Assembly (NCBI GenBank): GCA_037441675.1
Contig: JBBIRS010000001.1
Coordinates: 101,428 to 165,427 of the forward strand
Direction: 5' to 3'
From: Planctomycetales bacterium
GTDB lineage: Bacteria > 4484-113
Length of the DNA: 64,000 bases
The stretch's first letter is position 1, and every line of letters starts with the position of its first letter. This document shows, piece after piece, positions 170 to 60,197 of this stretch. Both the position numbers and the translations under genes were made by a program. The notes beneath the pieces are model-generated. The model saw nothing but the letters and a program-made list of their open reading frames with translations. It did no database searches and was not told the DNA's origin.

Positions 170-359
170 CTACCCAACCCGTATTAAATAAAGATTATTT
201 CATACTACTATTAAATAAACTGGGAGAAATGACGCCCCAATTTGGTTTGATAGCCTATGATACTGTCTATGAAACTTTTAGGATAATCTTTGTTGGCAGT
301 GAACTCAAAATACTAGAAAAATTTCAGTTACATAGTCTTGATATAATTCTAAATTGTTT

Positions 360-433
360 GGGGAGGTAGCTCAGCTGGCTAGAGCGCTGGTCTGTGGAAC
401 CAGAGGTCGAGGGTTCGATCCCCTCCCTCCCTA
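360..433 (+). tRNA. tRNA-His (anticodon GTG)
   Basis: Manually folded cloverleaf: acceptor GGGGAGG/CCTCCCT with a G1-U72 wobble, U8, D-stem GCTC/GAGC, anticodon stem CTGGT/ACCAG, loop CTGTGGA (anticodon GTG), T-arm GAGGG-TTCGATC-CCCTC, discriminator A; no CCA is encoded. Confidence 0.75.
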
Positions 434-524
434 GTTGAGGCTGTCTTAATAAAAGCTAGGCTGATGAATAGCCCTTTATTTTTAACCTTTTAGCTGGATT
501 TCTCTCTTGAAGACGGATAATCCA

Positions 525-1910
525 ATGGACAAAGTGAAAATCAAACCCAGGTTAATTCGGGGCTTCAAGGATCATTCACCTTATGAGGTTAAGGTTCTTC
601 ATCACATAATTAACGCCTTTGAAAAAACTTTTTTGCTTTATGGTTTTACACCATTGGAGACATCCGTAATTGAACATCAAGATATTCTACTTTCAGAGCT
701 AGGTGTTGATCCGAACAAGCAGATCTATCGCTTTTATGACCTAGAGAGGACACCTGTTGGCTTGCGTTTTGATTTAACTTTGTCCTTAGCTAGGTTCGTT
801 GCAATGAATATAAATGAGCTATCCTTTCCATTCAAGCGTTTTCAGGTTGGCAAAGTTTGGCGATTTGATAAGCCAAAACGCGGACGCTTGCGGGAATTTT
901 TTCAACTGGATGCTGATGTTCTTGGTGCCCCGCCCTATGAACCAGAGGTGGAGATTGTGACCGCGGTTTCTCAGGCATTTCATCGGCTAGGGATTGATTG
1001 CTACTACTTCAAAATTAATGACAGGAAGTATTTATCCAGCCTTCTTAATGAACTAGGTGTCGAGGAGAAAAAGCATAAGGATATATTCCGGGTTCTTGAC
1101 AAACTTTCTGTTCAAGGCGAATCTAAAGTTTTTAAGGAAATAACGGGACAACTTCTTCTTCAGGATTTTGATTCATCCCTTGAGTTTGAGAGGATGCAAG
1201 AGGTCAAAATAGATGTTGAGACAGGTAAATCTTTACTAAACAAGATTCGTAATCCTGAGCCGTTAAAGACTCACTTGAAAGAATTCTTTCAAAGGGTGCT
1301 TGAAGAGGGCGTTGATGAGAGAAAAATACTCTTCTCGCCATCTCTAACGCGTGGGCTGGATTACTACACTGGTTTCATTTGTGAAATAATGCTTGAGGGA
1401 GCTGAAAAAATAGGAAGCATCGGTGGTGGCGGTCGCTATGACAATCTTGTTGGTAAATACTGTGATAGAGTAATCAGTGGATTTGGACTAAGCGTTGGAC
1501 TGGATAGACTGTTGGGAGGTTTAGAGCTCTGCCCTCAGGAAATTACATCTATCTTTCCCCAAATATCCAAGCAATCATCAGCAGTTGTTTTGGTAACAGT
1601 TTTTGACGACTCTCTGCGTAGTGAGAGCTCACGAATTGCCAGAATGTTGCGGGAGGCTGGCATTTCAACTGAAACTTGGCTTATACCTCATTGCGAAAAA
1701 GGTAAAACCCTCTCCGGTCAGCTTAAATTCGCAGACAAGGCGGGAATACCCATTGCTGTTATTCCAGGTGAGGAAGAACTTAGGAAAAATCCACAAACTG
1801 TCCAAGTCAAGGATTTAAGAACTGAGTTTGGAGAGTCGCACAAGCAATTTGAAGTACCATTAGACAGGTTAGTTGAAACAATTCAAAGTCTACTTGATAG
1901 AAAATCCTAG
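525..1910 (+). CDS. hisS: histidyl-tRNA synthetase (class II); the ORF opens at a TTG at 507 but the likely start is the ATG at 525
   Basis: HisRS-specific GGRYD motif (GGGGRYDNLV), N-terminal KPRLIRGFKDHSPYE, class II aaRS motifs and a C-terminal anticodon-binding domain. Confidence 0.9.
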   Translation: MDKVKIKPRLIRGFKDHSPYEVKVLHHIINAFEKTFLLYGFTPLETSVIEHQDILLSELGVDPNKQIYRFYDLERTPVGLRFDLTLSLARFVAMNINELSFPFKRFQVGKVWRFDKPKRGRLREFFQLDADVLGAPPYEPEVEIVTAVSQAFHRLGIDCYYFKINDRKYLSSLLNELGVEEKKHKDIFRVLDKLSVQGESKVFKEITGQLLLQDFDSSLEFERMQEVKIDVETGKSLLNKIRNPEPLKTHLKEFFQRVLEEGVDERKILFSPSLTRGLDYYTGFICEIMLEGAEKIGSIGGGGRYDNLVGKYCDRVISGFGLSVGLDRLLGGLELCPQEITSIFPQISKQSSAVVLVTVFDDSLRSESSRIARMLREAGISTETWLIPHCEKGKTLSGQLKFADKAGIPIAVIPGEEELRKNPQTVQVKDLRTEFGESHKQFEVPLDRLVETIQSLLDRKS

Positions 1911-9323: not shown

Positions 9324-10205
9324 ATGGATCTTTCAGTCATTATCCCCAACTATAACGGAGAGAAACTCCTAATACCATTGATAAGCCGACTTGAAGAGTT
9401 ACTCGCCAAATCAGGCTTAAACTACGAAATAATCCTTGCTGATGATTGTTCTAATGATGAAAGTGTTACTTTAGTAAAGAGTACTTTTCCGTGGGTGAGA
9501 GTTGAGGCTGGTGGGGAGAGGAAAGGTTTTGGAGGCAACTGCAACAGAGGCGCAAAAGCAAGTAATGGTAATTATCTTGCTTTTGTAAACACTGATATTG
9601 AATTTGAAGGGGATATCTTCAACCAACTTATAAAGTCTCTATCAGATTCAAGGGTATTTGCAGTGATGCCTCTGATATTTGCTGAAAGATTAGGACGCGT
9701 GGAAAATTACACGTTCCTTTGGAAGCATCGCGGACTTGTCTGGTTAAAGCCAAGGGGAGAAATTGAGCTAACATCTGCGGAAGAAGTTGCTAAGAAACTA
9801 GAGCCCAATCCGATTGGTGGTGTTCCACTCTGCGGTGCATTTTTTATCTGTAAAAAGGATATTTTCAACACCCTTGGTGGATTTGACGAAATTTTTTCTC
9901 CAGCTTATTGGGAAGATGTGGACTTAGGGTTCAGAGCGGAAGAACTTGGCTATGACATACTGCTTGTCCCAGGAGTAAAAGTTCTGCATAAGCACTCTAT
10001 AACTATAGATATATCTTTCGGGGGATCCCTAAAGAAAAGGCTTCTGCTCAGGAATCAGGCACTATTTATAAAGAAGCATCTTAATCGGCTAGCGCCAATT
10101 CCCAATTTCCGCATTTGGCTTTCTCTAAGGATTTTCCAGCGTCTCTTTCAAGGCTATCAAGAGCTTATCCCAATTTATCTCTCCATAATCCTTTCGAGGC
10201 AGTAG
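9324..10205 (+). CDS. family 2 glycosyltransferase
   Basis: N-terminal VIIPNYNGEKLL...DDCSNDES, with DxD-type GT-A motifs. Confidence 0.8.
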   Translation: MDLSVIIPNYNGEKLLIPLISRLEELLAKSGLNYEIILADDCSNDESVTLVKSTFPWVRVEAGGERKGFGGNCNRGAKASNGNYLAFVNTDIEFEGDIFNQLIKSLSDSRVFAVMPLIFAERLGRVENYTFLWKHRGLVWLKPRGEIELTSAEEVAKKLEPNPIGGVPLCGAFFICKKDIFNTLGGFDEIFSPAYWEDVDLGFRAEELGYDILLVPGVKVLHKHSITIDISFGGSLKKRLLLRNQALFIKKHLNRLAPIPNFRIWLSLRIFQRLFQGYQELIPIYLSIILSRQ

Positions 10206-11489: not shown

Positions 11490-12473
11490 TCAAAGGTTGT
11501 TAACCAAGAATCTATACCAATTTTCGCCCATTATTCCCCTGATTGTTTCAGGTTTTACCCCCTCTCTAGCAAGTTCATCAGCTAGCAAGGATAGATCGGA
11601 AACGCTGTTCATCCCCGCTGGGGTATCACTAGCTGAAATTCCACCGTCAAAGTCTGATCCAATTCCTAATCCCTCATCTCCTACTATCTCCAATATATGA
11701 AGAGCATGTCTAACCGTTTCCTTGATTGGCACTTGTGGGTCTTCTTCTTTCCAATCGGGTTTAAGAAATCCATTGTATAGAAGAAGTCCAATGACACCAC
11801 CCCTTTGTGCTAGTGCCTCAATTTGCTGGTCTTTAAGATTCCTTGGATGGGGACAGAGGGAATAGCTGTTGCTATGGGTTGCGACTACGGGACCGCTCCA
11901 AACATCCATTACTTGCCAAAAACTTTTTTCGTTCAGGTGAGAGATATCAAGAATGAAACCGAGATTGTGCATTTCCCTTAAAAAGGATACCCCCTCCTCC
12001 GTAAGCCCTTCATCTGTCCTAGCACCTCCTGCCCACTGATTTGCTTCATTCCAGGTAAGGCTCAATACCCGAACGTTTCTTTCATGTAATTGAGCCAATT
12101 CCGCAGGGCTATCTATTAAATCTGCTCCTTCCAACATCAAACAGAAGCCCCATACCTTTTCACCATTAAGAAAATCAAGTCTCAGTCTCATAAGATCTTC
12201 ATGGGCAAGGATCTCACGCACCTGATTGAAACTAGACACTATATCCCTATACAGTGCGAACTGTTCAGATAGTATCTCCTTTCTCCTTCGCCGATCTAAG
12301 TCATGTTCAACAAATAATGACGCTATGGAAGCCATTACCCCTCCCCTTAAAAGTCCCTCAAGAGTAATCATGGCGTCTCCAGGGTTTTCCGCTTCAGAAA
12401 AAGTTCTCTTATGTGTCAAAATGTGCCACGCTAGATCCTCGTGTGCGTCAACTATGTACAACCTTTCACTCAT
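11490..12473 (-). CDS. membrane dipeptidase, peptidase family M19
   Basis: VDAHEDL near the N-terminus, LEGADLIDSPAELAQLHERNVRVLSLTWNEAN matching the renal-dipeptidase signature, and HSNSYSLCPHPRNL. Confidence 0.7.
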   Translation of the reverse strand: MSERLYIVDAHEDLAWHILTHKRTFSEAENPGDAMITLEGLLRGGVMASIASLFVEHDLDRRRRKEILSEQFALYRDIVSSFNQVREILAHEDLMRLRLDFLNGEKVWGFCLMLEGADLIDSPAELAQLHERNVRVLSLTWNEANQWAGGARTDEGLTEEGVSFLREMHNLGFILDISHLNEKSFWQVMDVWSGPVVATHSNSYSLCPHPRNLKDQQIEALAQRGGVIGLLLYNGFLKPDWKEEDPQVPIKETVRHALHILEIVGDEGLGIGSDFDGGISASDTPAGMNSVSDLSLLADELAREGVKPETIRGIMGENWYRFLVNNL

Positions 12474-12514
12474 GTCTTTATTCCCTCCACAGAAGAACTC
12501 TAGTTAGAGAAAGC

Positions 12515-14929
12515 TTAAAAATCATTTGCAAGGATAAAATCATAAACTTTTCTATATTTGAGAACTTTTTTCACAAATTGTTTTGTTTCAAAATTGGGAA
12601 GTAACTCTACAACAATTTGGGGATAATTTGAATTAATATTTCTAAGCCAATTCCTTAAGTTGCCAGGTCCAGCGTTGTAAGCAGCAATTGCTAAGTATTC
12701 CTCACCAAACATTCTTAGTTGTTCTGCAATATAAGCACATCCTATATGAATGTTTTTTTCAGGATCCGTAAGTGGTCTTAGATGTAGATGCTGAGGAATC
12801 TTGGTTTCATAAAGCTTAGCAGTTGAAGGTAGAATCTGCATTAGCCCCACCGCTTGAGCGGAAGATACTGCCTTGGGGTTGAAGTTGCTCTCTTTCGCTA
12901 TCAATGCATAAATAAGAGCTTTAGATATTTTGTACCGCGCAGAGGCTTCTTCAACAATCTCCTTATAAGGAGTGGGAAAGGCAATCTTTAAGACCAGCCA
13001 TACTAGTCTTCTATCCATCCTTGTGTGTAGTCCTTGTTCAAGCATTAACAGGACTTTCCATCTGCTAATTGGGATTTCGGCTGTTTGATCAAGGTTGTAC
13101 GCATACATAGCTGGTATTATCGAATCACTTGCGGTATTAGTATTTAATTCTTCCATCTCAATCACGAAATCCGTCATAAATAGACTAAGCAAGTATTCTT
13201 CTTCCAACTCTTTGCTAAATAGAAAACTATCATTAGTATAAAGGGGCTCTAAATTCTTCCATCCTAATTTACCAAGCGGGCAGAGCTCGTAATAACTTAG
13301 TTTTTGAACATTGTAGCTAATCGTTGAAATATTCCTATCTTCAGCTTTTGAGATGCCCGCTAAAAATTCTTTCCAATAGTTAGACACAGATGGTTCTTTT
13401 TCTTCTACTTTAGAAATCGCCCAGTTTGCGGTTTTCATATCAGATGAATAAATGAGAAGCGGAATAAGCTCTTCGGCGCTTTGGACTGTATCTGTTCCTC
13501 CTTTCAAAAGGTTATCTCGTAAGAGTTGAATTTGTTTGTTTTGACTAGAGAAAGGCTCTCTCTCTTTTAGAAGCTGATACAACTTATACCGCAAGGTATT
13601 CGTGTAACGACCTTCTAGCTGAATAGCCTTTGATAATTCAACCTTTGCCTTTTGCCAATCACCCATCTTTTCTAAAAAGTTCGCATAGTTTAGTGATATA
13701 AGCTGAAGCGCCTCCTCAGCCAGACCAGAGCGATTCTTCTCAGCGATACTCTTTGCTTGGTTGACAAGCTCGCTTATTGATGCCTCGTTCATTTGTGGTG
13801 TTGACACACCGGTGGCTATTGCGATTAACAGCAGTCTAAATCTTTCGTCTATTCCTTCGGTAGTTATTAACTTCTTCAGTGTTTCTAAACTTTTTCTCTT
13901 GAATTCTACATCTTCATTGGCGATTTGTTCACTTAACCTAAGAAAGTACTCCATTGGTAGGTCAATCAGTTCGCTACTTAGTTTTGGAGTAATTTCACTT
14001 AGGCTATCAATTAGGTTTTTCACAGCAATCCTCGTTGTGTTCTTGGCATTTGAACTAAGTGCCTGAAGAAAATATTTGCAGGCAAAATCAATCTTGCCTA
14101 TCTTTTTGTAATATTCCCCTAGCTCAATGTAAGCCTTTGATGTTATCCAACTGGAGTTAAGTTTTGCATCCTTCTCCAAAGAGAGTAATAAGTTGAGGCA
14201 AGAAAGTGCGTTATTAATCCTCCCCTTTATTAGTTCATTTTCAAGCAAATTCAAAACAGCTCGTTTCCTTATGGGTATATATGTGCTTTTGAGTAGACGT
14301 TTCATTTGAGCCAATCCAGACTTCGCTTCGCGTTGGTCACCGACAATGATTTTGGCTCTCGCATTGTAATAGGCTAGGTAATCGTTAAGCTGAGGGGAGA
14401 CACCATTCTTTATTGCTTCATTGAAATAGCTTTTAGCCCCATTCCAATCGCCAAGCAGGGCAAGTTGGTAACCTGCGAACATCTTTAAGTTGCCATATAC
14501 AGGGTAGTTTCTTAATTCAGCGTAAGTCCCGCTCTGAAATGGGTTATCTATCATGCCTTTGCTTTTAGCTTGGTTGAGGATATCAAGCCGAAGCTCATTA
14601 ACAAGATCCACAGTGTCCTCGTGAAATCCGTAAATTGCGCTCATCAATTGCGCCTTTCCTATGTTTCCAGAGAGGGCGTAAATCCGAGCCAATGCCTGTA
14701 GCGTTTCCCTTGTATTTTTATTTCTCAAATTGTGGATGGTTTCCTGCTTGGCTAGTGAGAGATAATTCCTCTTGATTTTCTCGCTGAGGGGGAGCATTTC
14801 CCGATACATGCTTCTTACCAATAAGAACCCTCCCCACAGGCTTAACATAACTAAAGCTATTACTAAAAACCGTCCGATACTTTTGGTAGTGAAAATCATT
14901 CTCCCATAAGGACCAAAGTGTTTATTCAA
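12515..14929 (-). CDS. soluble lytic murein transglycosylase (Slt70-like): N-terminal TM helix, TPR/superhelical domain, C-terminal SLT domain
   Basis: C-terminal SLT motifs ESNFNPKAVSSAQAVGLMQILPSTA and AYNAGPGN; long helical-repeat N-terminal region. Confidence 0.85.
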   Translation of the reverse strand: MNKHFGPYGRMIFTTKSIGRFLVIALVMLSLWGGFLLVRSMYREMLPLSEKIKRNYLSLAKQETIHNLRNKNTRETLQALARIYALSGNIGKAQLMSAIYGFHEDTVDLVNELRLDILNQAKSKGMIDNPFQSGTYAELRNYPVYGNLKMFAGYQLALLGDWNGAKSYFNEAIKNGVSPQLNDYLAYYNARAKIIVGDQREAKSGLAQMKRLLKSTYIPIRKRAVLNLLENELIKGRINNALSCLNLLLSLEKDAKLNSSWITSKAYIELGEYYKKIGKIDFACKYFLQALSSNAKNTTRIAVKNLIDSLSEITPKLSSELIDLPMEYFLRLSEQIANEDVEFKRKSLETLKKLITTEGIDERFRLLLIAIATGVSTPQMNEASISELVNQAKSIAEKNRSGLAEEALQLISLNYANFLEKMGDWQKAKVELSKAIQLEGRYTNTLRYKLYQLLKEREPFSSQNKQIQLLRDNLLKGGTDTVQSAEELIPLLIYSSDMKTANWAISKVEEKEPSVSNYWKEFLAGISKAEDRNISTISYNVQKLSYYELCPLGKLGWKNLEPLYTNDSFLFSKELEEEYLLSLFMTDFVIEMEELNTNTASDSIIPAMYAYNLDQTAEIPISRWKVLLMLEQGLHTRMDRRLVWLVLKIAFPTPYKEIVEEASARYKISKALIYALIAKESNFNPKAVSSAQAVGLMQILPSTAKLYETKIPQHLHLRPLTDPEKNIHIGCAYIAEQLRMFGEEYLAIAAYNAGPGNLRNWLRNINSNYPQIVVELLPNFETKQFVKKVLKYRKVYDFILANDF

Positions 14930-18302: not shown

Positions 18303-19976
18303 TTAGTAGTATCTAGGTGAGAAAACGATATCAACCTTCTTATTTTTTGCTGACGCCCTAAAGTCCAGCAAGTGGTTGTAATTAACATCGCTGGTAAGAA
18401 ATTTTCCGTGCGCTACCCATCTATTTGAATGACTTGAAAGCCGAACATCAGATACTTCATACATACTTGCACTCTGTATAAACTCAATTTCCCCTAAGAG
18501 TTTACCAACTTCCTTTTCGAGTTCTTTCTTTCCAGTGGAGTATGCTGAAAAATTAATAATAACCCCAAAAGGTGGAAGCTTAAAATCTTCCTTCAGTTTC
18601 TCTATGTCAGCAAGGGTTTTCTTCCTATCGGGCCCAATCCTAGCGAAAATTGCATCAGTAATTTGTTTTGGGCCTAGAAGTTGAATATTTACTGAATTTC
18701 TTCCGTAAAGAGAGTATAGACGATAGATTTGATCCTCTACGAATTCCTCAACAAAGGGAGCCTGCGAAACCGATATAAATTCCCTTAGGATGAAAACGAT
18801 TTTCTTCGGTTTATAGAAGCTTAAAGGTGAGAAAAGTGTGCTTGTCCCAATCAATACGTCCGTTCTACCCAGATTCGCTTCCCTAATTTCACCTCTACGT
18901 GCTTGGTATAATGCTCCTACACGTGGCGTATGTGGAAGATTTCGTTTCTTAAGCTCAGCTCTAACTAGTTTCGCCAAGCCTTCAACTCCAACAAGTTGAA
19001 TAGAAAGCTCTCTTCCTTGACATTCTTGACACGCAACATTTCTGCTTCTAAAGCCACAATTGGTGCAGGCGAAATGCTCCGTATCTGCACTGTAAAGAAG
19101 ATATCTTCCGCAATTGGGGCAGTACACCATACTATCACAACTTTCACATTTAATATGTTGCCCAATGCCCAAGGCATCGTTAAGGACCAGCATTTTCACG
19201 CCACTTCTTGCTTGCGAGGCAATTGTTCTTGAGAGTTTTATTATTCTCTCATTACTAGTGCCGGATACAGGTTTTGGAGTTGAATGCAATTCATCCGCGG
19301 AATAACACGGATAAGTGGAAGTTAGGGGGATTAACCTCAACACCATTGGTGTAACCATTGAGTAGAAGTATAAATTTAGTAGCGTGTTGTATCTTGGGTA
19401 ATCTTGAGATTGAAAATGTGGGTTAGTTGGGTCAAAGATAATTACCTCGTCAAAGAGAGAGTAAAGGCAAAGGAAATTGCTAGCCCTTTTTCCAACTATA
19501 ACAATGGACTGCGAGCTTTTGAGAGATTGCTCCAACTTAACAAGTTCGGAAGAAGGCATATCAGAAGAAAAGGTTAATACTCTATCCGCACCCCTTTTTG
19601 GAAGCGCATTTTTGAACGCTTCAACAAAGCTCTCTTCGGGCAAAAGCACGAGAATTTTACTTTTCTTATTCAAAAGAGTCCTGACAAATGATTTGCGAAA
19701 AAAGTCACGCCAATTCACATTTTCAACTCTTATGCAAGGGCTAGAGATGCATCCATCATTCAAAGAGAGTTCAGAAAAGAAACTACTAACTTGCCTGAAA
19801 AAGGAGTGTCCTTCGGGGAATTTGGCTTCTTCTCCTTTAAGTGGAATGGCGAGAACTTGCTGAATCGGTGTTTCAACCTCTTTCCATGTCTTATGAACGA
19901 CCGTTGACAAGGATAATGTTCCTACTACCCTTAACTGCCCACTCTCTAGTATGTCCCATAACTGACTAGGCTCCAT
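18303..19976 (-). CDS. priA: primosomal protein N' (PriA), C-terminal 557-aa portion; the helicase ATPase motifs are degenerate
   Basis: PriA-specific Cys-rich zinc region CESCDSMVYCPNCGRY...CTNCGF...CQEC; region KILVLLPEES...IVIVGKRASNF...LFDEVIIFDPTNPH aligns to PriA motifs I-II but lacks GxGKT and DEEH. Confidence 0.7.
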   Translation of the reverse strand: MEPSQLWDILESGQLRVVGTLSLSTVVHKTWKEVETPIQQVLAIPLKGEEAKFPEGHSFFRQVSSFFSELSLNDGCISSPCIRVENVNWRDFFRKSFVRTLLNKKSKILVLLPEESFVEAFKNALPKRGADRVLTFSSDMPSSELVKLEQSLKSSQSIVIVGKRASNFLCLYSLFDEVIIFDPTNPHFQSQDYPRYNTLLNLYFYSMVTPMVLRLIPLTSTYPCYSADELHSTPKPVSGTSNERIIKLSRTIASQARSGVKMLVLNDALGIGQHIKCESCDSMVYCPNCGRYLLYSADTEHFACTNCGFRSRNVACQECQGRELSIQLVGVEGLAKLVRAELKKRNLPHTPRVGALYQARRGEIREANLGRTDVLIGTSTLFSPLSFYKPKKIVFILREFISVSQAPFVEEFVEDQIYRLYSLYGRNSVNIQLLGPKQITDAIFARIGPDRKKTLADIEKLKEDFKLPPFGVIINFSAYSTGKKELEKEVGKLLGEIEFIQSASMYEVSDVRLSSHSNRWVAHGKFLTSDVNYNHLLDFRASAKNKKVDIVFSPRYY

Positions 19977-20068
19977 ATGACTAAGTAGTTTTTTGAGAAG
20001 GGATGACGATATTCTAGTGCCGTCTCTTGGTAGAAGGATTTTGAGTATCGCCCCAATTTTCTTTGATT

Positions 20069-20428
20069 TTAATGTCTCTTCCCATTTCTCACCGTAAAAA
20101 AAAACAGATTTATCCTTCTTTGAGCCTGGCCAAAGGTTACAAGATCAAATATCTCAGCGGGAGAACAAAGATACAAACGGGAAAGCGCAAGTATCATCTT
20201 TCCAATGTGCACTACTGGTGACGTAGTCAATCTCAATCTTCCCACAATAGGCAATAGCCCATTCAAGTTGCCATTCGTAAGCTCGGCAATTATTCCCGCC
20301 ACTAGCTTCTCTCTGAATGGCACAATTACCAACTCTCCCTTATCGTAGGACTTATCTAACGGGACTCTATACGAGAAATAACGGAAACGCGGGTCTTGCC
20401 CAAGAAGATATATTTTCGCAATTCTCAT
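20069..20428 (-). CDS. priA: PriA N-terminal 3'-DNA-binding domain fragment (119 aa), out of frame with the 18303-19976 ORF
   Basis: YRVPLDKSYDKGELVIVPFREKLVAGII matches the PriA N-terminal domain; ends just after a T9 run; the downstream ORF continues in another frame. Confidence 0.6.
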   Translation of the reverse strand: MRIAKIYLLGQDPRFRYFSYRVPLDKSYDKGELVIVPFREKLVAGIIAELTNGNLNGLLPIVGRLRLTTSPVVHIGKMILALSRLYLCSPAEIFDLVTFGQAQRRINLFFFTVRNGKRH

Positions 20429-32232: not shown

Positions 32233-34719
32233 ATGACCCGCACAGACCGTATAGAATTTGACGAAAAAATCCGACCTCGTGAAATTGTTGAGGAGCTTGA
32301 AGAAAGCTACTTAGATTACGCGATGAGCGTAATAATAGGTAGAGCCATTCCTTCGGTTAAGGATGGCTTGAAAGTCATCCATCGTCGCATTATTTACAGT
32401 ATGTTTGACGCGGGGTACACCTCAAATAAGCCCACAAACAAGAGCGCAAAAATCGTAGGGGAGGTTATGGGTAAGTTCCACCCACACGGTGATGCTGCAA
32501 TTTACGACGCTCTGGTGAGGCTAGCTCAGCCTTGGAGTATTCGCTACCCGCTGATTGAAGGGCAGGGGAACTTTGGCTCCATTGATGGTGATGAACCTGC
32601 TGCAATGAGATATACGGAAGTTAGGCTTTCTCCCCTCGCGGAGTATTTAATGCGGGACATTCGTAAGCGAACGGTGGACTTTGTCCCAACCTTTGATGGT
32701 AAAGAACTAGAACCAGTTGTATTACCCGCCCTTTTGCCAATTCTCCTTATGAATGGAACAGAGGGTATCGCAGTTGGTATGGCTACCCGTATACCTCCGC
32801 ATAACTTAAATGAACTAGTTAACGCATGTAAAGTGTTAATACAAAATCCCAAGGCAACCAATGAAGAGCTATTACGTCACGTAACCGGTCCGGACTTTCC
32901 AACTGGTGGTTTGATACTTGGCACCGATGGAATAACTAAAGCTTACACCGAAGGTAGAGGCACTATAACTATAAGGGGTCGGGCAAGTGTAGAGCAGGAT
33001 AAGAGGGAACGCTTTAGGATAGTTATCACCGAAGTGCCGTATCAGATAAACAAGTCAGCGCTCGTGGAGAAGATTGCGGAACTTGCCTCCCAAAGCAAGG
33101 GTGCTCTTTCGGGAATCTCAGATATTCGTGACGAATCTGATAGAACTGGCATACGGGTTGTTCTAGAGTTAAAAAGGGATGCAAATCCCCAGGTCATCCT
33201 AAACAACCTTTACAAATATACCCCTCTTCAAACAACCTACGGCATTATTCAACTGGCTCTGGTAGATGGAGTACCCAAGGCTCTATCCCTAAAGGACATT
33301 CTTGAGCTCAATATTAATCACGGTAGGATAGTCTTAACTAAGAGAATAGAGTTTGAACTAGAGCAAGCGGAGAAGAGGGCGCATGTGCTTGAGGGCTTTA
33401 AGATTGTCCTTGATAATCTTGATGTAGTAATTAAGATTATTAGGTCAAGCGCAGATCATAAAGAAGCCTCAAACCTTCTAATTGCGAGGTTCAAGTTTAC
33501 CGAGGAGCAAGTAAAGGCTATCTTGGATATGAGGCTTAGCCAGCTGACGAATCTTGAACGCAAGAAAGTTCTTGATGAGCTAGCAGAGCTGAAAAAATCA
33601 ATAAAAGAGTTCAAGTCAATCTTATCCACCCCCAAGAAAATTGATGAAATTCTCATAGAGGAGCTAGAAGAATCAGTTAAGAGGTTTGGTGATGAAAGAC
33701 GGACAACTATTGTTCAGACCGACGAGAAAGGTGAGTTCAAGGAAGAAGATCTGGTGAGAAGTGAATCGGTTGTGGTAACTATAAGCAGAAACAGCTACAT
33801 TAAACGAGTGCCTTTATCAAGTTTTAGAGTTCAGGCAAGGGGAGGACGTGGGCTAATTGGAGCCGGCTTAAAGTCTGACGATGCGGTTAGCGGTCTCGTT
33901 TTGACTAACACTTTGGATACTATACTTTGCTTCACCAACAGAGGGAACGTTTACTCATTGAAAGTTTACAAAATTCCAGCTTTTGATAGAACCGCAAAGG
34001 GTACTCCGATTGTGAATTGTATTGGGCTGGGAAATCCTGAAGAAAGAGTAACCGCAATCGCATCATTGAAAGAGTTCTCCGAGCCTTATCTTTTTATGTG
34101 CACTAGGAAGGGGCGAGTAAAGAAATGCGCGCTTTCTGAATTCACGAACCTTAGGATAACAGGCAAGCGCTCCATTACCCTAGAAGGCACTGACACTTTG
34201 GAGTTTGTTATTCCTACTAGTGGCAAGGACACGCTTATTATCAGCACTCGAAAAGGCTTTTCAGTTTGTTTCAATGAGGGTGAAGTAAAACCAGTGGGGA
34301 CATCCGCCCAGGGCGTTATTGGGATTAGGCTTCAAGGAGAGGACGATGAAGTTGTCGGACTTGGCAGAATAAAACCTTCCAGCGAGCTTCTCGTCGTAAG
34401 TGAACTTGGATATGGCAAGAGAACCCCACTCTCAGAATTCCGAATAACTCATCGGGCTACCAAGGGAATTATAAGTATGAAAGTGCGTGAAAAAACGGGG
34501 GATGTTATTTCCGCGAGGGTGGTTAGCGAGAATGATGAGGTGATTCTGATTTCAGTTGACGGAATGGTTATCAGGACTGAAGTTAGACAGATTTCCCAAC
34601 AGGGGCGTAGCACTATGGGCGTTAAGGTTATGAATTTAAGGGAAGGAGACAAGGTTTCCGCAGTAGAAGTGGTTCCCTCAGATTTTGGTGGAGAGTCGCT
34701 TTTTGAGCCTAATAGTTGA
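32233..34719 (+). CDS. gyrA: DNA gyrase subunit A
   Basis: HPHGDAAIYDALVRLAQPW, active-site region, and a GyrA-box-like QARGGRG at the start of the beta-pinwheel CTD. Confidence 0.85.
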   Translation: MTRTDRIEFDEKIRPREIVEELEESYLDYAMSVIIGRAIPSVKDGLKVIHRRIIYSMFDAGYTSNKPTNKSAKIVGEVMGKFHPHGDAAIYDALVRLAQPWSIRYPLIEGQGNFGSIDGDEPAAMRYTEVRLSPLAEYLMRDIRKRTVDFVPTFDGKELEPVVLPALLPILLMNGTEGIAVGMATRIPPHNLNELVNACKVLIQNPKATNEELLRHVTGPDFPTGGLILGTDGITKAYTEGRGTITIRGRASVEQDKRERFRIVITEVPYQINKSALVEKIAELASQSKGALSGISDIRDESDRTGIRVVLELKRDANPQVILNNLYKYTPLQTTYGIIQLALVDGVPKALSLKDILELNINHGRIVLTKRIEFELEQAEKRAHVLEGFKIVLDNLDVVIKIIRSSADHKEASNLLIARFKFTEEQVKAILDMRLSQLTNLERKKVLDELAELKKSIKEFKSILSTPKKIDEILIEELEESVKRFGDERRTTIVQTDEKGEFKEEDLVRSESVVVTISRNSYIKRVPLSSFRVQARGGRGLIGAGLKSDDAVSGLVLTNTLDTILCFTNRGNVYSLKVYKIPAFDRTAKGTPIVNCIGLGNPEERVTAIASLKEFSEPYLFMCTRKGRVKKCALSEFTNLRITGKRSITLEGTDTLEFVIPTSGKDTLIISTRKGFSVCFNEGEVKPVGTSAQGVIGIRLQGEDDEVVGLGRIKPSSELLVVSELGYGKRTPLSEFRITHRATKGIISMKVREKTGDVISARVVSENDEVILISVDGMVIRTEVRQISQQGRSTMGVKVMNLREGDKVSAVEVVPSDFGGESLFEPNS

Positions 34720-56050: not shown

Positions 56051-56629
56051 TCATTTTCTCCTTTCCTGTCTTTGGTCCTTTTGCTCTTCTCTTTTTTCTT
56101 CCGCTCTATCCCTCAACTCACCTTTTTCTCTCTTTTCTTCACTTGGGATCACCCTAGGGATAGGCCTTTCCGTTGGGATCAATTCCACAGGGTAAGTCCC
56201 GTATTTTTCAACTTGCTCCGGTGTAGCGTAATAGAGATACCAAATTCTCCCTTCTTTTACCCACTTCACTGGTTTAGTCTGTGCAAGTGGTAAATCTCCT
56301 CTTTTCACAATCCAAGTAACTCCAAAATGACCCGAAATTCTATACATAACATCCTTGAGCTTAACCTCTTCCTTTCTCCCCAGTGGGCTTTCGCTGATTC
56401 TTTTCTGAAATTCTTCAATAATCTCAAAAGCTTCACCCTCCGCCTTTTTACTAACGGAAGGTGGCAGAAAGTCGCTTAACCTATCCCTTGTGTTCTTGCC
56501 AGTGAAAAGGTTGTAAAAAGAGACAGCTCTATTTGGTAGATTAGTGGTAGAACTATCGCAGGAAACTAAGATTATCAGTGAAATTCCTAAAACGGAAAAT
56601 AGAAATAGGATTAATTTTTTAATCCTCAC
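56051..56629 (-). CDS. hypothetical lipoprotein with a Lys/Glu/Arg-rich C-terminal tail
   Basis: Signal peptide plus lipobox LVSC; the low-complexity basic/acidic C-terminus has no match I recognise. Confidence 0.45.
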   Translation of the reverse strand: MRIKKLILFLFSVLGISLIILVSCDSSTTNLPNRAVSFYNLFTGKNTRDRLSDFLPPSVSKKAEGEAFEIIEEFQKRISESPLGRKEEVKLKDVMYRISGHFGVTWIVKRGDLPLAQTKPVKWVKEGRIWYLYYATPEQVEKYGTYPVELIPTERPIPRVIPSEEKREKGELRDRAEEKREEQKDQRQERRK

Positions 56630-56632
56630 TTC

Positions 56633-58303
56633 TTAAATATTACCACTTACTTTCAGTCCGTATTTCTTAGCGGTAGCAATTGCTTCCTCATATCCCGCAT
56701 CTGCGTGGCGCATAATTCCTGTCCAGGGGTCAGAATTTAGCACCTTCTCAATCTTTTTCGCCTGCTCATTGGTCCCATCTGCGACAACGACCATTCCAGC
56801 GTGAAGCGAGTAGCCTATCCCAACACCGCCTCCATGGTGAAAGCTTACCCAACTTGCTCCACATACCGCATTTAATAGCGCATTGAGCACAGGCCAATCT
56901 CCAATAGCATCACTTCCATCCTTCATTCCCTCTGTTTCACGATTTGGACTAGCCACGCTACCCGAATCAAGATGGTCTCTTCCTATAACGATAGGCGCTT
57001 TGACCTTACCCTTTTTGACTAGCTCGTTGAACAAAAGCCCAGCCTTATCCCTCTCATAATATCCCAACCAGCATATCCGTGAAGGTAATCCCTGAAACTT
57101 AACTTTCTCTCCCGCCAGCTTAAGCCATCTTTTCAGATGCTCTTTCTCTGGGAAAAGTTCTGCAAGAGCTCTGTCGCTTTCTTATATATATTGAGGATCA
57201 CGTCAAAGTGCACCCCATCTAAATGGACCCTCACCACGGCAGAATAGTGGTCTTATATAAGCCTGCACGAAGCCGGGGAACTTAAATGCATCCTTTAGCC
57301 CTCTATTTTCCGCCACCTGCCCACGAATATTGTTCCCGTAGTCAAATACAACAGCTCCGCTATCTTGAAAAGCAAGCATTGCTTTCACCTGTTTTGCCAT
57401 GCTATCGTAGGCAAGCTCACGGTACTTTTCCGGTGACGTGTGTCGAAGTTCTAGCGCCTCTTCATAGGGAATACCTGCAGGTACATAGCCATTCAGCTCA
57501 TCATGGGCGCTTGTTTGGTCAGTGACCACATCCGGGATAATCCCCCTTCTCACAAGCTCCGGATGGGTATCTGCGGCATTAGCAGTTAGTCCAATTGAGA
57601 GAGCCTCACCTTTTTCTTTCGCCCTCAAAGCCATTTCCACCGCTTCGTCAAGATTGTCTGCAACCGTATCCAAATACCCTGTTTTCAGCCTTCGTTCAAC
57701 TCTATCCTTATCAACCTCAACGCAAATACCGACACCACCGTTCATAGTTATTGCTAAAGGTTGAGCACCACCCATTCCACCAAGACCTGCGGTCAGAACA
57801 AGCTTGCCCTTTAGGCTTCCATCAAAATGCTTATTAGCCACAGCGGCTAATGTTTCATACGTTCCTTGCAGGATTCCTTGGGTGCCAATATAAATCCAGC
57901 TCCCGGCGGTCATCTGGCCAAACATAGTCAAGCCCATTCTCTCGTATTTTCTGAAATTCTCCCAAGTTGCCCAAGCGGGGACAATAACACTATTCACTAT
58001 CAAAACTCTTGGCGCCCATTCGCTGGTTGGGAATATGCCCACCGCCTTTCCTGATTGGACCAAAAGGGTTTCGTCGTTTTCAAGATGCCTTAGCGCTCTT
58101 AATATCCCTTCAAAGCATTCCCAATTTCTTGCAGCTTTTCCAGTCCCGCCATAAACAATAAGCTCTTCAGGCTTTTCAGCAACTTCAGGGCTTAAGTTGT
58201 GCTGTATCATTCTATAAGCCGCCTCTTGCACCCACCCCTTGCAGTTAAGTTGATTTCCAGTAGGGGGGGTAACCACTCGGTGTTCTGTCTTCATCATAGC
58301 CAT
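56633..58303 (-). pseudogene. hutU: urocanate hydratase (hutU) interrupted by two in-frame stop codons
   Basis: N-terminal ORF 57203-58303 and C-terminal ORF 56633-57067 are in the same frame and together align to full-length urocanase (...[36 protein letters not shown]...). TGA at 57203-57205 replaces a Ser codon and TAA at 57182-57184 replaces a Tyr codon. Confidence 0.75.
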
Positions 58304-58337: not shown

Positions 58338-59666
58338 TTAGCCAACTTCCTCATCTAACTCCGCTTGAACAAGTCTAATACGATTTCTCTCAACCAAAAG
58401 AATCGTAAATTTAACTCCCGCAAAATAAACTACGTCCCCTTTCTTGGGTATTTTGCCGAACTTAGCGTAAAGAAGCCCGCCAATGGTGTCATACTCATCA
58501 CTATCTATGTTTACGCCCGTAATTTCGTTAAACTCATCAATAGAAACTATTGCGTTCACTACAAAACTGCCATCCGAGTTTTTCTGTATTAGTTCAGCTT
58601 CTGGCATATCGTATTCATCATGAATTTCTCCGACGATTTCCTCTAAAATGTCTTCAATTGTAACGAGCCCGGAGACGCCTCCATATTCGTCAGAAACAAT
58701 TGCCATATGCGTCTTATCGCGCTGTAAATCGTGTAATAGCTCATCAATAGGTTTGCTCTCAGGGACGAACATCGCCGGTGCTAATATATCCTCTATCTTA
58801 CCCATTTCCCGATTCTTTGCTATCGCTTTCATAAGGTTGCGTATGTGTAATATGCCAATAATGTTGTCAATTGAGTGGCTATATACGGGAAATCTCGAGT
58901 AAGGTGCTTCGGAGATTTCGCTAAGTATCTTTTCAGGCTCATCTTCAGCATCAATGGCAATAATGTCAACCCGCGGTGTCATAATTTCTTTTGCGGTTTT
59001 CTCACCCATTTCAAATATGGCTGAAATCATTTCCTTTTCTCTATGCTCTAGTTCCTCTTCTTCAGCTGCGGTTGTCTCATAAATGTTCAAATCGTGCATA
59101 CCTAGCTTTTCTGGAAGCTTAGCCAGGTTGCTTGTAAGATTCGCTAGGCTTGCTGGAATTGCGACAAGAGGGCTTAAAGCTTTTTGCAAGAGATAGATTA
59201 ACTTGGCATTCTTTATTAAGAAATCTGTTCCTGCAAGAAGAAGTATCGGCAGAAGGCATCCAAATAAACCAAAGACAAACCCCGAGAGTAAGAAAGCAAT
59301 TAAACCAATTAGCGCTAAATGAATGCCCGCCTCAATTCCGCCACGGCTGATTAGATAAAAAAGGCCCAAGGTCATAAGTAGAACCCCAAGAGTTAGAGAT
59401 ATGAAAGCTCCTCCAGCAATAGCTAAAGTGGTTCTAGCGGGCTTGCGAAGCATTCGCCGTAGACGATTAATGTCCTTATTTTCGCCCGTTTCTTCAAAGG
59501 GTGCGATTTCGCCTGGGTCAACACTAAGCAGGCTTGCAAAGGCTGTAGAGGTAAAGGCAGAAACCAGAAGCAATAGCACTATCCCACCCCCAACCATTAG
59601 GCTGTTAAGTGCAGTAGTCTGCACGATTCCCACAGCGATGATTGTTTCTAAGGGCTCAGTGTCCAA
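58338..59666 (-). CDS. CorC/HlyC-family (CNNM-type) transporter: DUF21, CBS pair and CorC_HlyC domain
   Basis: N-terminal TM DUF21, CBS pair KEIMTPRVDII...IIGILHIRNL, and C-terminal transporter-associated domain. Confidence 0.8.
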   Translation of the reverse strand: MDTEPLETIIAVGIVQTTALNSLMVGGGIVLLLLVSAFTSTAFASLLSVDPGEIAPFEETGENKDINRLRRMLRKPARTTLAIAGGAFISLTLGVLLMTLGLFYLISRGGIEAGIHLALIGLIAFLLSGFVFGLFGCLLPILLLAGTDFLIKNAKLIYLLQKALSPLVAIPASLANLTSNLAKLPEKLGMHDLNIYETTAAEEEELEHREKEMISAIFEMGEKTAKEIMTPRVDIIAIDAEDEPEKILSEISEAPYSRFPVYSHSIDNIIGILHIRNLMKAIAKNREMGKIEDILAPAMFVPESKPIDELLHDLQRDKTHMAIVSDEYGGVSGLVTIEDILEEIVGEIHDEYDMPEAELIQKNSDGSFVVNAIVSIDEFNEITGVNIDSDEYDTIGGLLYAKFGKIPKKGDVVYFAGVKFTILLVERNRIRLVQAELDEEVG

Positions 59667-60153
59667 AGTTTTCTACCTCTACCTTGAAATACTCAAATAT
59701 CTTCCTCTCTAGTTTGCTCATCTTATGGTAATCAGCCTTTCTATGATGGTCTAACCCAAGTAAATGAAGAATACCATGACAACATACCGCAAAGAACTCA
59801 TCCTCTTCACTGTTCTTGTTTCTATTAGCTTGCCTTCTCACTTGACTGAGATTCACAACAACATCTCCCAATAAAAGCGGGTTTCTATGAGCCTTAATCC
59901 TAACGCCAAGTTTGCCCTCTTCTTCCAAATGGTTTTCTATATTATCCATAGGAAAGGATAGAATATCCGTAATCGCATCTTTACCGCAAAATTCCTTATT
60001 CAAACTCCGTATGTACTTATCCCCGCATACCATAATGCCCAATTCGTCATCAGAGCTCATTCCTAGTTTACCTATAAGATTTCTAATCTTTTCCTCAATA
60101 CATTTTCTAAAACTAGGGATTTTTCTTATTTGCCATCGGAAGATTAGCCCCAT
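59656..60153 (-). CDS. ybeY: rRNA maturation endoribonuclease YbeY
   Basis: HGILHLLGLDH zinc-binding motif; conserved ybeY-corC gene pair. Confidence 0.85.
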   Translation of the reverse strand: MGLIFRWQIRKIPSFRKCIEEKIRNLIGKLGMSSDDELGIMVCGDKYIRSLNKEFCGKDAITDILSFPMDNIENHLEEEGKLGVRIKAHRNPLLLGDVVVNLSQVRRQANRNKNSEEDEFFAVCCHGILHLLGLDHHRKADYHKMSKLERKIFEYFKVEVENFGH

Positions 60154-60197
60154 CGTTCAGATTTAATTATACACGACCATTTTCTAAATATCTAAGG

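Follow-up and report, generated by a model that had tools for sequence, protein, structure and literature searches.

At this locus a gene for urocanate hydratase (hutU) lies on the minus strand in a row of closely spaced genes, within a window (the whole stretch of DNA analyzed) of 64,000 nucleotides. The gene, its internal features, and its neighbors are as follows.

59656-60153, minus strand: ybeY, upstream, overlapping corC by 11 nt.
58338-59666, minus strand: corC (CNNM-CBS), upstream, separated from hutU by a gap of 34 nt.
56633..58303, minus strand: hutU (urocanate hydratase) frame, 557 codons including two internal stops and the terminal TAA.
57203..58303, minus strand: 5' ORF of hutU, 366 aa, ending at TGA; Urocanase_N and NAD-binding Rossmann domain.
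57761..57787, minus strand: glycine-rich NAD-binding motif GLGGMGGAQ, residues 173-181; intact, invariant columns.
57203..57205, minus strand: in-frame TGA, codon 367; Ser in 120 of 120 homologues.
57182..57184, minus strand: in-frame TAA, codon 374; Tyr in 95 of 120 homologues and Ile in the three closest.
56633..57181, minus strand: 3' remainder of hutU, in frame, encoding Urocanase_C.
56051..56629, minus strand: gene for a 192-aa hypothetical protein, 3 nt after the hutU stop; position conserved in relatives.

Given their tight spacing, ybeY, corC, and hutU probably form one transcription unit; a promoter-like site upstream of ybeY (60166-60194) is a consensus match only. Along the hutU frame, the Pfam domains Urocanase_N, Rossmann-like, and Urocanase_C follow one another (families PF17391 + PF01175 + PF17392), with E values of 3e-56, 2.4e-91, and 2e-78, respectively. 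This is the three-domain architecture of HutU (EC 4.2.1.49; structures 1x87, 2fkn, and 1uwk), and the protein is 65 to 70% identical to the solved urocanases 1x87 and 2fkn, with an end-to-end alignment (E of ~1e-245 for 1x87). It also aligns end to end with the Geobacillus and Bacillus urocanases, and it contains the GPFRW and RICWLGY segments. When the stops are masked, the NCBIfam hutU equivalog TIGR01228 gives a score of 915 bits against a cutoff of 375. An identity as thiourocanate or S-methyl-thiourocanate hydratase was rejected, since the scores fall below both NCBIfam cutoffs (683 against 880 and 643 against 930, respectively). Residues 173 to 182, the glycine-rich NAD+ motif, correspond to invariant columns of the homologue alignment.

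The gene departs from HutU in that the expected uninterrupted frame of ~550 aa is absent: TGA occupies codon 367, directly following the conserved GPFRW segment, and TAA occupies codon 374. In addition, the invariant residues S367, G368, and D372 and the near-invariant residues T376 and G416 are replaced. The first canonical start codon 3' of the TAA is a TTG at 57067 (minus strand); initiation there would leave out 46 conserved residues, and therefore no complete C-terminal domain would be made separately. As written, hutU would be unable to yield a urocanase and, judged by its sequence, is a pseudogene. The first-pass annotation of this DNA had described two stops in one frame, 21 nt apart, in a full-length urocanase, and translation, the Pfam domains, and the TIGR01228 score bear this out; it was also right that the glycine region for NAD binding is intact. 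It had further placed the TGA at an expected Ser and the TAA at an expected Tyr, with each stop one point mutation away from the sense codon. For the TGA, this agrees with the uniform Ser at column 367 and with a single change from TCA. For the TAA, it stands only in part: most homologues have Tyr at this position, but the three closest relatives have Ile, and a single point mutation suffices only if the ancestral residue was Tyr.

The same annotation had considered stop-codon reassignment unlikely, and the window as a whole agrees. TAG, TAA, and TGA terminate 19, 18, and 12, respectively, of 49 large ORFs, and long conserved genes, including those for DnaE, GyrA, TamB, RuvB, HisRS, and Ffh, are uninterrupted. 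The genetic code is standard, and reassignment is excluded. Another way to obtain a product would be recoding (double read-through, selenocysteine at the TGA, or ribosomal bypass) or expression as two polypeptides, for which one can point to the frame, kept across both stops, and to the intact remainder of the gene. We consider this extremely improbable for several reasons. (i) All three stop codons end other genes, and the two stops in hutU are different codons. (ii) The only tRNAs in the window are His(GTG) and Gln(CTG), with no suppressor tRNA, and the window holds no Rfam recoding elements. (iii) The neighboring invariant residues G368 and D372 are destroyed too, and a bypass of the segment would remove the conserved SGDPxDI motif. 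(iv) A split protein starting at the TTG would drop the 46 conserved residues mentioned above. The tRNA-His(GTG) lies directly upstream of the histidyl-tRNA synthetase gene (window positions 359-1910); this pair is the sole other histidine-linked feature in the window and is unrelated to hutU.

To locate the damage within the gene, hutU was aligned with 120 homologues (68 to 85% identity). The lesions identified are as follows.

57176..57214, minus strand: 39-nt lesion patch, codons 364-376, with V364G, S367stop, G368R, D372Y, 374stop, and T376S.
57056..57058, minus strand: codon 416, TAT (Tyr); Gly in 116 of 120 homologues, at least two base changes needed.

The four substitutions beside the stops (V364G, G368R, D372Y, and T376S) and the more distant G416Y had been overlooked in the first-pass annotation. 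Conservation reaches 95% or more in 251 columns; the window gene deviates at just 8 of them, and half of these deviations (S367stop, G368R, D372Y, and T376S) fall within ten codons. Strictly invariant columns number 166 in the 120 homologues; hutU keeps 163 of them and loses S367, G368, and D372, all within 6 codons, a clustering with a P of ~6e-4 for three invariant columns drawn at random. Intact homologues depart from otherwise-invariant columns at most twice each, and 95 of the 120 do not do so at all. Column 364 is Val in 81 and Ala in 39 homologues and is never Gly, whereas column 374, which holds the second stop, is variable. Outside the patch, Tyr416 is the sole residue of hutU never seen in the homologues. 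A scan statistic over all lineage-specific changes fell short of significance (P = 0.07), since variable regions naturally lie close together; the signal appears once conservation is considered.

The base changes in the patch were deduced by codon logic from the amino acid differences and the window DNA. The minimal changes are T>G or C>G, C>G, G>C, G>T, T/C>A, and C>G; each is a transversion, and C:G to G:C changes, the rarest class of spontaneous mutation, account for three or four of the six. Since the two stops sit within a cluster of six changes in 39 nt, they are not independent hits; a single event at this site, or an error in the local consensus, would leave such a cluster. Even with read-through of both stops, G368R and D372Y would be expected to leave a crippled enzyme.

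The neighborhood of the gene bears on its history. In canonical hut operons, such as those of Pseudomonas, Klebsiella, and Bacillus, the order is hutH-hutU-hutI-hutG/hutF. The window gene likewise encodes the second enzyme of the pathway, but it is a solitary hut gene in a ybeY operon, flanked by corC and a small hypothetical gene. That no hutH, hutI, or hutG is adjacent, as had been stated previously, was corroborated by a domain search (Lyase_aromatic, imidazolonepropionase, and formiminoglutamase), which found none in the ORFs of at least 100 aa across the 64 kb. The comparison with the orthologous locus that had been proposed was carried out, and an intact hutU was found in the same neighborhood in three relatives, namely, GCA_900175145.1 (L001; 85% identity), L083/L084 (78%), and L085 (78%); the disabling lesion is thus present in the window gene against intact orthologues at the syntenic position. 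The gene order around the intact copies is larA / ybeY-corC-hutU-hyp / nth / RNase T / 4HBT / tamB-mlaD-ABC-mlaE, and the L085 locus is visible only from hutU onwards (hutU-hyp-RNase T-4HBT-tamB-mla). None of the relatives has hutH, hutI, or hutG in the sequence read around hutU, which spanned ~10 kb on each side if the contig was long enough (in L085, the upstream part was only 2.5 kb). The solitary arrangement is thus ancestral in the clade, selectively maintained, and compatible with a working gene.

A number of further observations were made at these loci. The closest orthologue (P0001, from GCA_900175145.1, 85% identity) is called 31 codons short, at 525 aa (L001 9881-10000); the in-frame sequence upstream of its start matches the window N terminus, so the true protein is full length. 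L001 and a second locus of the same assembly (L133; contig FWWM01000084.1) together bring the collinearity with the window (positions 22000-64000) to ~45 kb, and about 35 window genes match GCA_900175145.1 genes in length. The second locus likewise has no hutH, hutI, or hutG. Between that assembly and the window, hutU (85%) is more conserved than GyrA (75%). In L083, a 64-aa phage-integrase fragment lies just upstream of hutU (9789-9983) and a DUF4268 gene just downstream (11677-12624), which suggests that the hutU spot has undergone insertion events.

The first-pass annotation had proposed that hutU is the decaying remnant of a lost histidine-utilization pathway, that is, an old pseudogene. 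The absence of hutH, hutI, and hutG domains from the 64-kb window and the presence of two stops instead of one would agree with this proposal. However, since the same solitary hutU is intact in three relatives with the same synteny, its solitary position does not indicate that the pathway was lost, and this part of the proposal fails. The distribution of the damage also speaks against old decay: if six changes in 39 nt had accumulated by neutral drift, a divergence of ~15% would be predicted gene-wide, which is not observed, and invariant columns are kept everywhere outside the patch.

The dN/dS check that had been suggested for the remaining sequence was run and proved uninformative, as synonymous sites are saturated against all three relatives. 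Values of pN ranged from 0.10 to 0.155 and those of pS from 0.81 to 0.88 (a pN of 0.10 beside a pS of 0.85). Low pN next to saturated pS nevertheless makes long-term purifying selection on hutU evident. In place of dN/dS, we used a relative-rate count of amino acid changes with the next relatives as outgroups, which assigned 30 lineage-specific changes to the window gene and 28 to its intact closest orthologue. The excess expected of a decaying pseudogene under relaxed constraint is therefore absent, and the changes outside the patch are conservative (K/E, F/Y, V/I, M/L, and similar). With change outside the patch no faster than in the intact orthologue, a long decay is ruled out, and we regard the old-remnant proposal as very unlikely. 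The earlier view that the inactivation was recent, if there was one, is upheld by the same counts and by departures from invariant columns that are confined to the patch. The lack of excess change would fit either a very recent event or an artefact, so that the options left would be one very recent local event or a consensus error.

The second of these options is that the patch, and possibly codon 416, was miscalled owing to low coverage or quality, a polishing error, or a chimeric join, in which case hutU is intact in the organism. We see this as a substantial possibility, somewhat short of even odds. The confinement of the damage to one short stretch, with perfect conservation in the rest of the gene, and the missing sign of relaxed selection (30 versus 28 changes) both fit it, as does a spectrum of transversions only, rich in C/G swaps, which is atypical of natural mutation; this spectrum resembles base-calling or consensus noise at least as much as biology. 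The window also contains a second lesion, at the following gene.

18303-20428, minus strand: priA-like gene, split into a 119-aa ORF (20428-20069) and a 557-aa ORF (19976-18303).

The 119-aa ORF corresponds to the PriA 3' DNA-binding domain and the 557-aa ORF to a Cys-rich zinc-ribbon region. With one more T in a T9 run (20096-20104), the two become a single protein of 708 aa, as if a T were missing from a T9/T10 run. The joined protein matches the NCBIfam priA model weakly (71 bits against a cutoff of 230), and no Walker-type helicase motif is evident in it; either the consensus is wrong at the homopolymer or a divergent PriA carries a real frameshift. The position of the frameshift, at a T9 run, is a hint of imperfect consensus calling. 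On the other side, the rest of the window is clean: the ~35 genes match the lengths of those in the relative, and in GyrA no conserved column carries a singleton departure, so errors are not widespread in the consensus. Clustered substitutions are rarely invented by short-read assemblers that use de Bruijn graphs. Furthermore, the changes in the patch do not make hutU more like that of other species, and cross-mapped foreign hutU reads are therefore not the cause.

The consensus-error explanation also draws on the source, which is a draft assembly (a contig of 405,660 bp) of an uncultured lineage that was sequenced once. GyrA (gyrA, window positions 32233-34719) is 75% identical to that of GCA_900175145.1, and its closest named matches are from the metagenome-assembled genomes Planctomycetales bacterium 4484_113 (67%) and "Candidatus Riflebacteria bacterium RBG_13_59_9" (64%); the host belongs to an uncultured, sparsely sampled lineage of candidate-phylum level. 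The window proteins occur once in a collection of 15 billion proteins, in which the 192-aa hypothetical protein, CorC, and GyrA have no cluster mates at 90% identity or more. A second copy from the same species was found neither in genome contigs, where the best among the matches listed reached at most 71% identity, nor in metagenome contigs, where a degenerate DNA pattern for a species-specific peptide returned 46 loci, the best at 71%. One 56-aa cluster mate (P0123) lies on a metagenome contig of 1,921 bp (L082; JGI Ga0074076_102457) that carries the urocanase in three small frameshifted ORFs; this contig looks like a low-quality assembly rather than the pseudogene of a relative, and it stops before the region matching the window patch.

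Sequences that might have served as templates for the patch were sought nearby. An imperfect inverted repeat of 18 nt (56995-57012 / 57194-57211, 181 nt apart) has a CTTTGAC that matches the TGA-bearing sequence, and a direct repeat of 9 nt, TATATAAGA, located 71 nt upstream, matches the TAA-bearing sequence. When other bases were substituted at the mutated positions, local matches were equally long (7 to 8 nt), so those observed are not above chance. Templated mutagenesis of the quasi-palindrome or template-switch type thus found no support, and no donor-like sequence for the patch was found elsewhere in the window. Regarding new signals, an internal promoter made by the mutations (TTGACG...TATAAG) was not called, as its spacer is only 10 to 14 nt. 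The Gly-to-Tyr change at codon 416 creates a TATTAT that pairs with a TTCACG over a 16-nt spacer (57056-57083, minus strand; 9/12 consensus match), just upstream of the TTG that opens a residual ORF of 144 aa. This match is probably due to chance, as such sites are more numerous in shuffled sequence than in this region, and a scan of the region found no notable promoter- or terminator-like site created by the mutations.

Taken together, the reading we tentatively prefer, with a rough probability of 0.48, is that hutU would be a genuine, very recent loss-of-function allele, produced by a single local mutational event affecting several bases. Two points here are inferred: the patch would be present in the DNA of the organism, beyond the consensus, and it would have had a single origin. 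The clean GyrA supports such a knockout. Until the lesion, the solitary hutU of the ybeY-corC operon would have been held under strong purifying selection; a single local event, for example, a patch of error-prone repair or synthesis, would then have introduced six transversions in 39 nt, two of which would have created stops, so that translation would end at codon 367. As the outcome of one natural event, six substitutions in 39 nt would be a large number. The narrower proposition, that a real patch represents one localized hypermutation in a natural population, caught before decay and comprising the six transversions together with a change of GG to TA at a distance of 44 codons, is doubtful; if true, it would be an unusually large natural case in which clustered error-prone synthesis inactivated a gene under strong conservation.

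Compared with known cases, hutU resembles recent nonsense-mutation pseudogenes in having in-frame stops in a full-length syntenic gene with intact orthologues, but it has two stops and four missense changes in 39 nt and no other damage. A multinucleotide mutation cluster, or an error in the consensus, matches this damage better than a set of independent point mutations does. Mutation clusters from single events, such as short template switches, are a documented class (PMC5453318). In such clusters, several nearby substitutions occur together on a clean background, and the window gene shows the same pattern; it differs in that its patch has no direct or inverted template nearby that is better than chance. 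No new kind of system is involved, and a hutU knockout and an assembly error would both be ordinary; only the tight clustering of several inactivating substitutions is slightly unusual.

The solitary arrangement being ancestral, the absence of hut neighbors is uninformative here, and the lesson for method is that the distribution of damage separates an old remnant from a single recent event or an error. Beyond annotation, the hutU lesion matters little. If the patch is an artefact, a public draft genome contains a local error here, which might otherwise be passed on as a pseudogene. If it is real, the organism would have just lost its urocanase, and metabolic reconstructions should not credit it with HutU-dependent histidine degradation.
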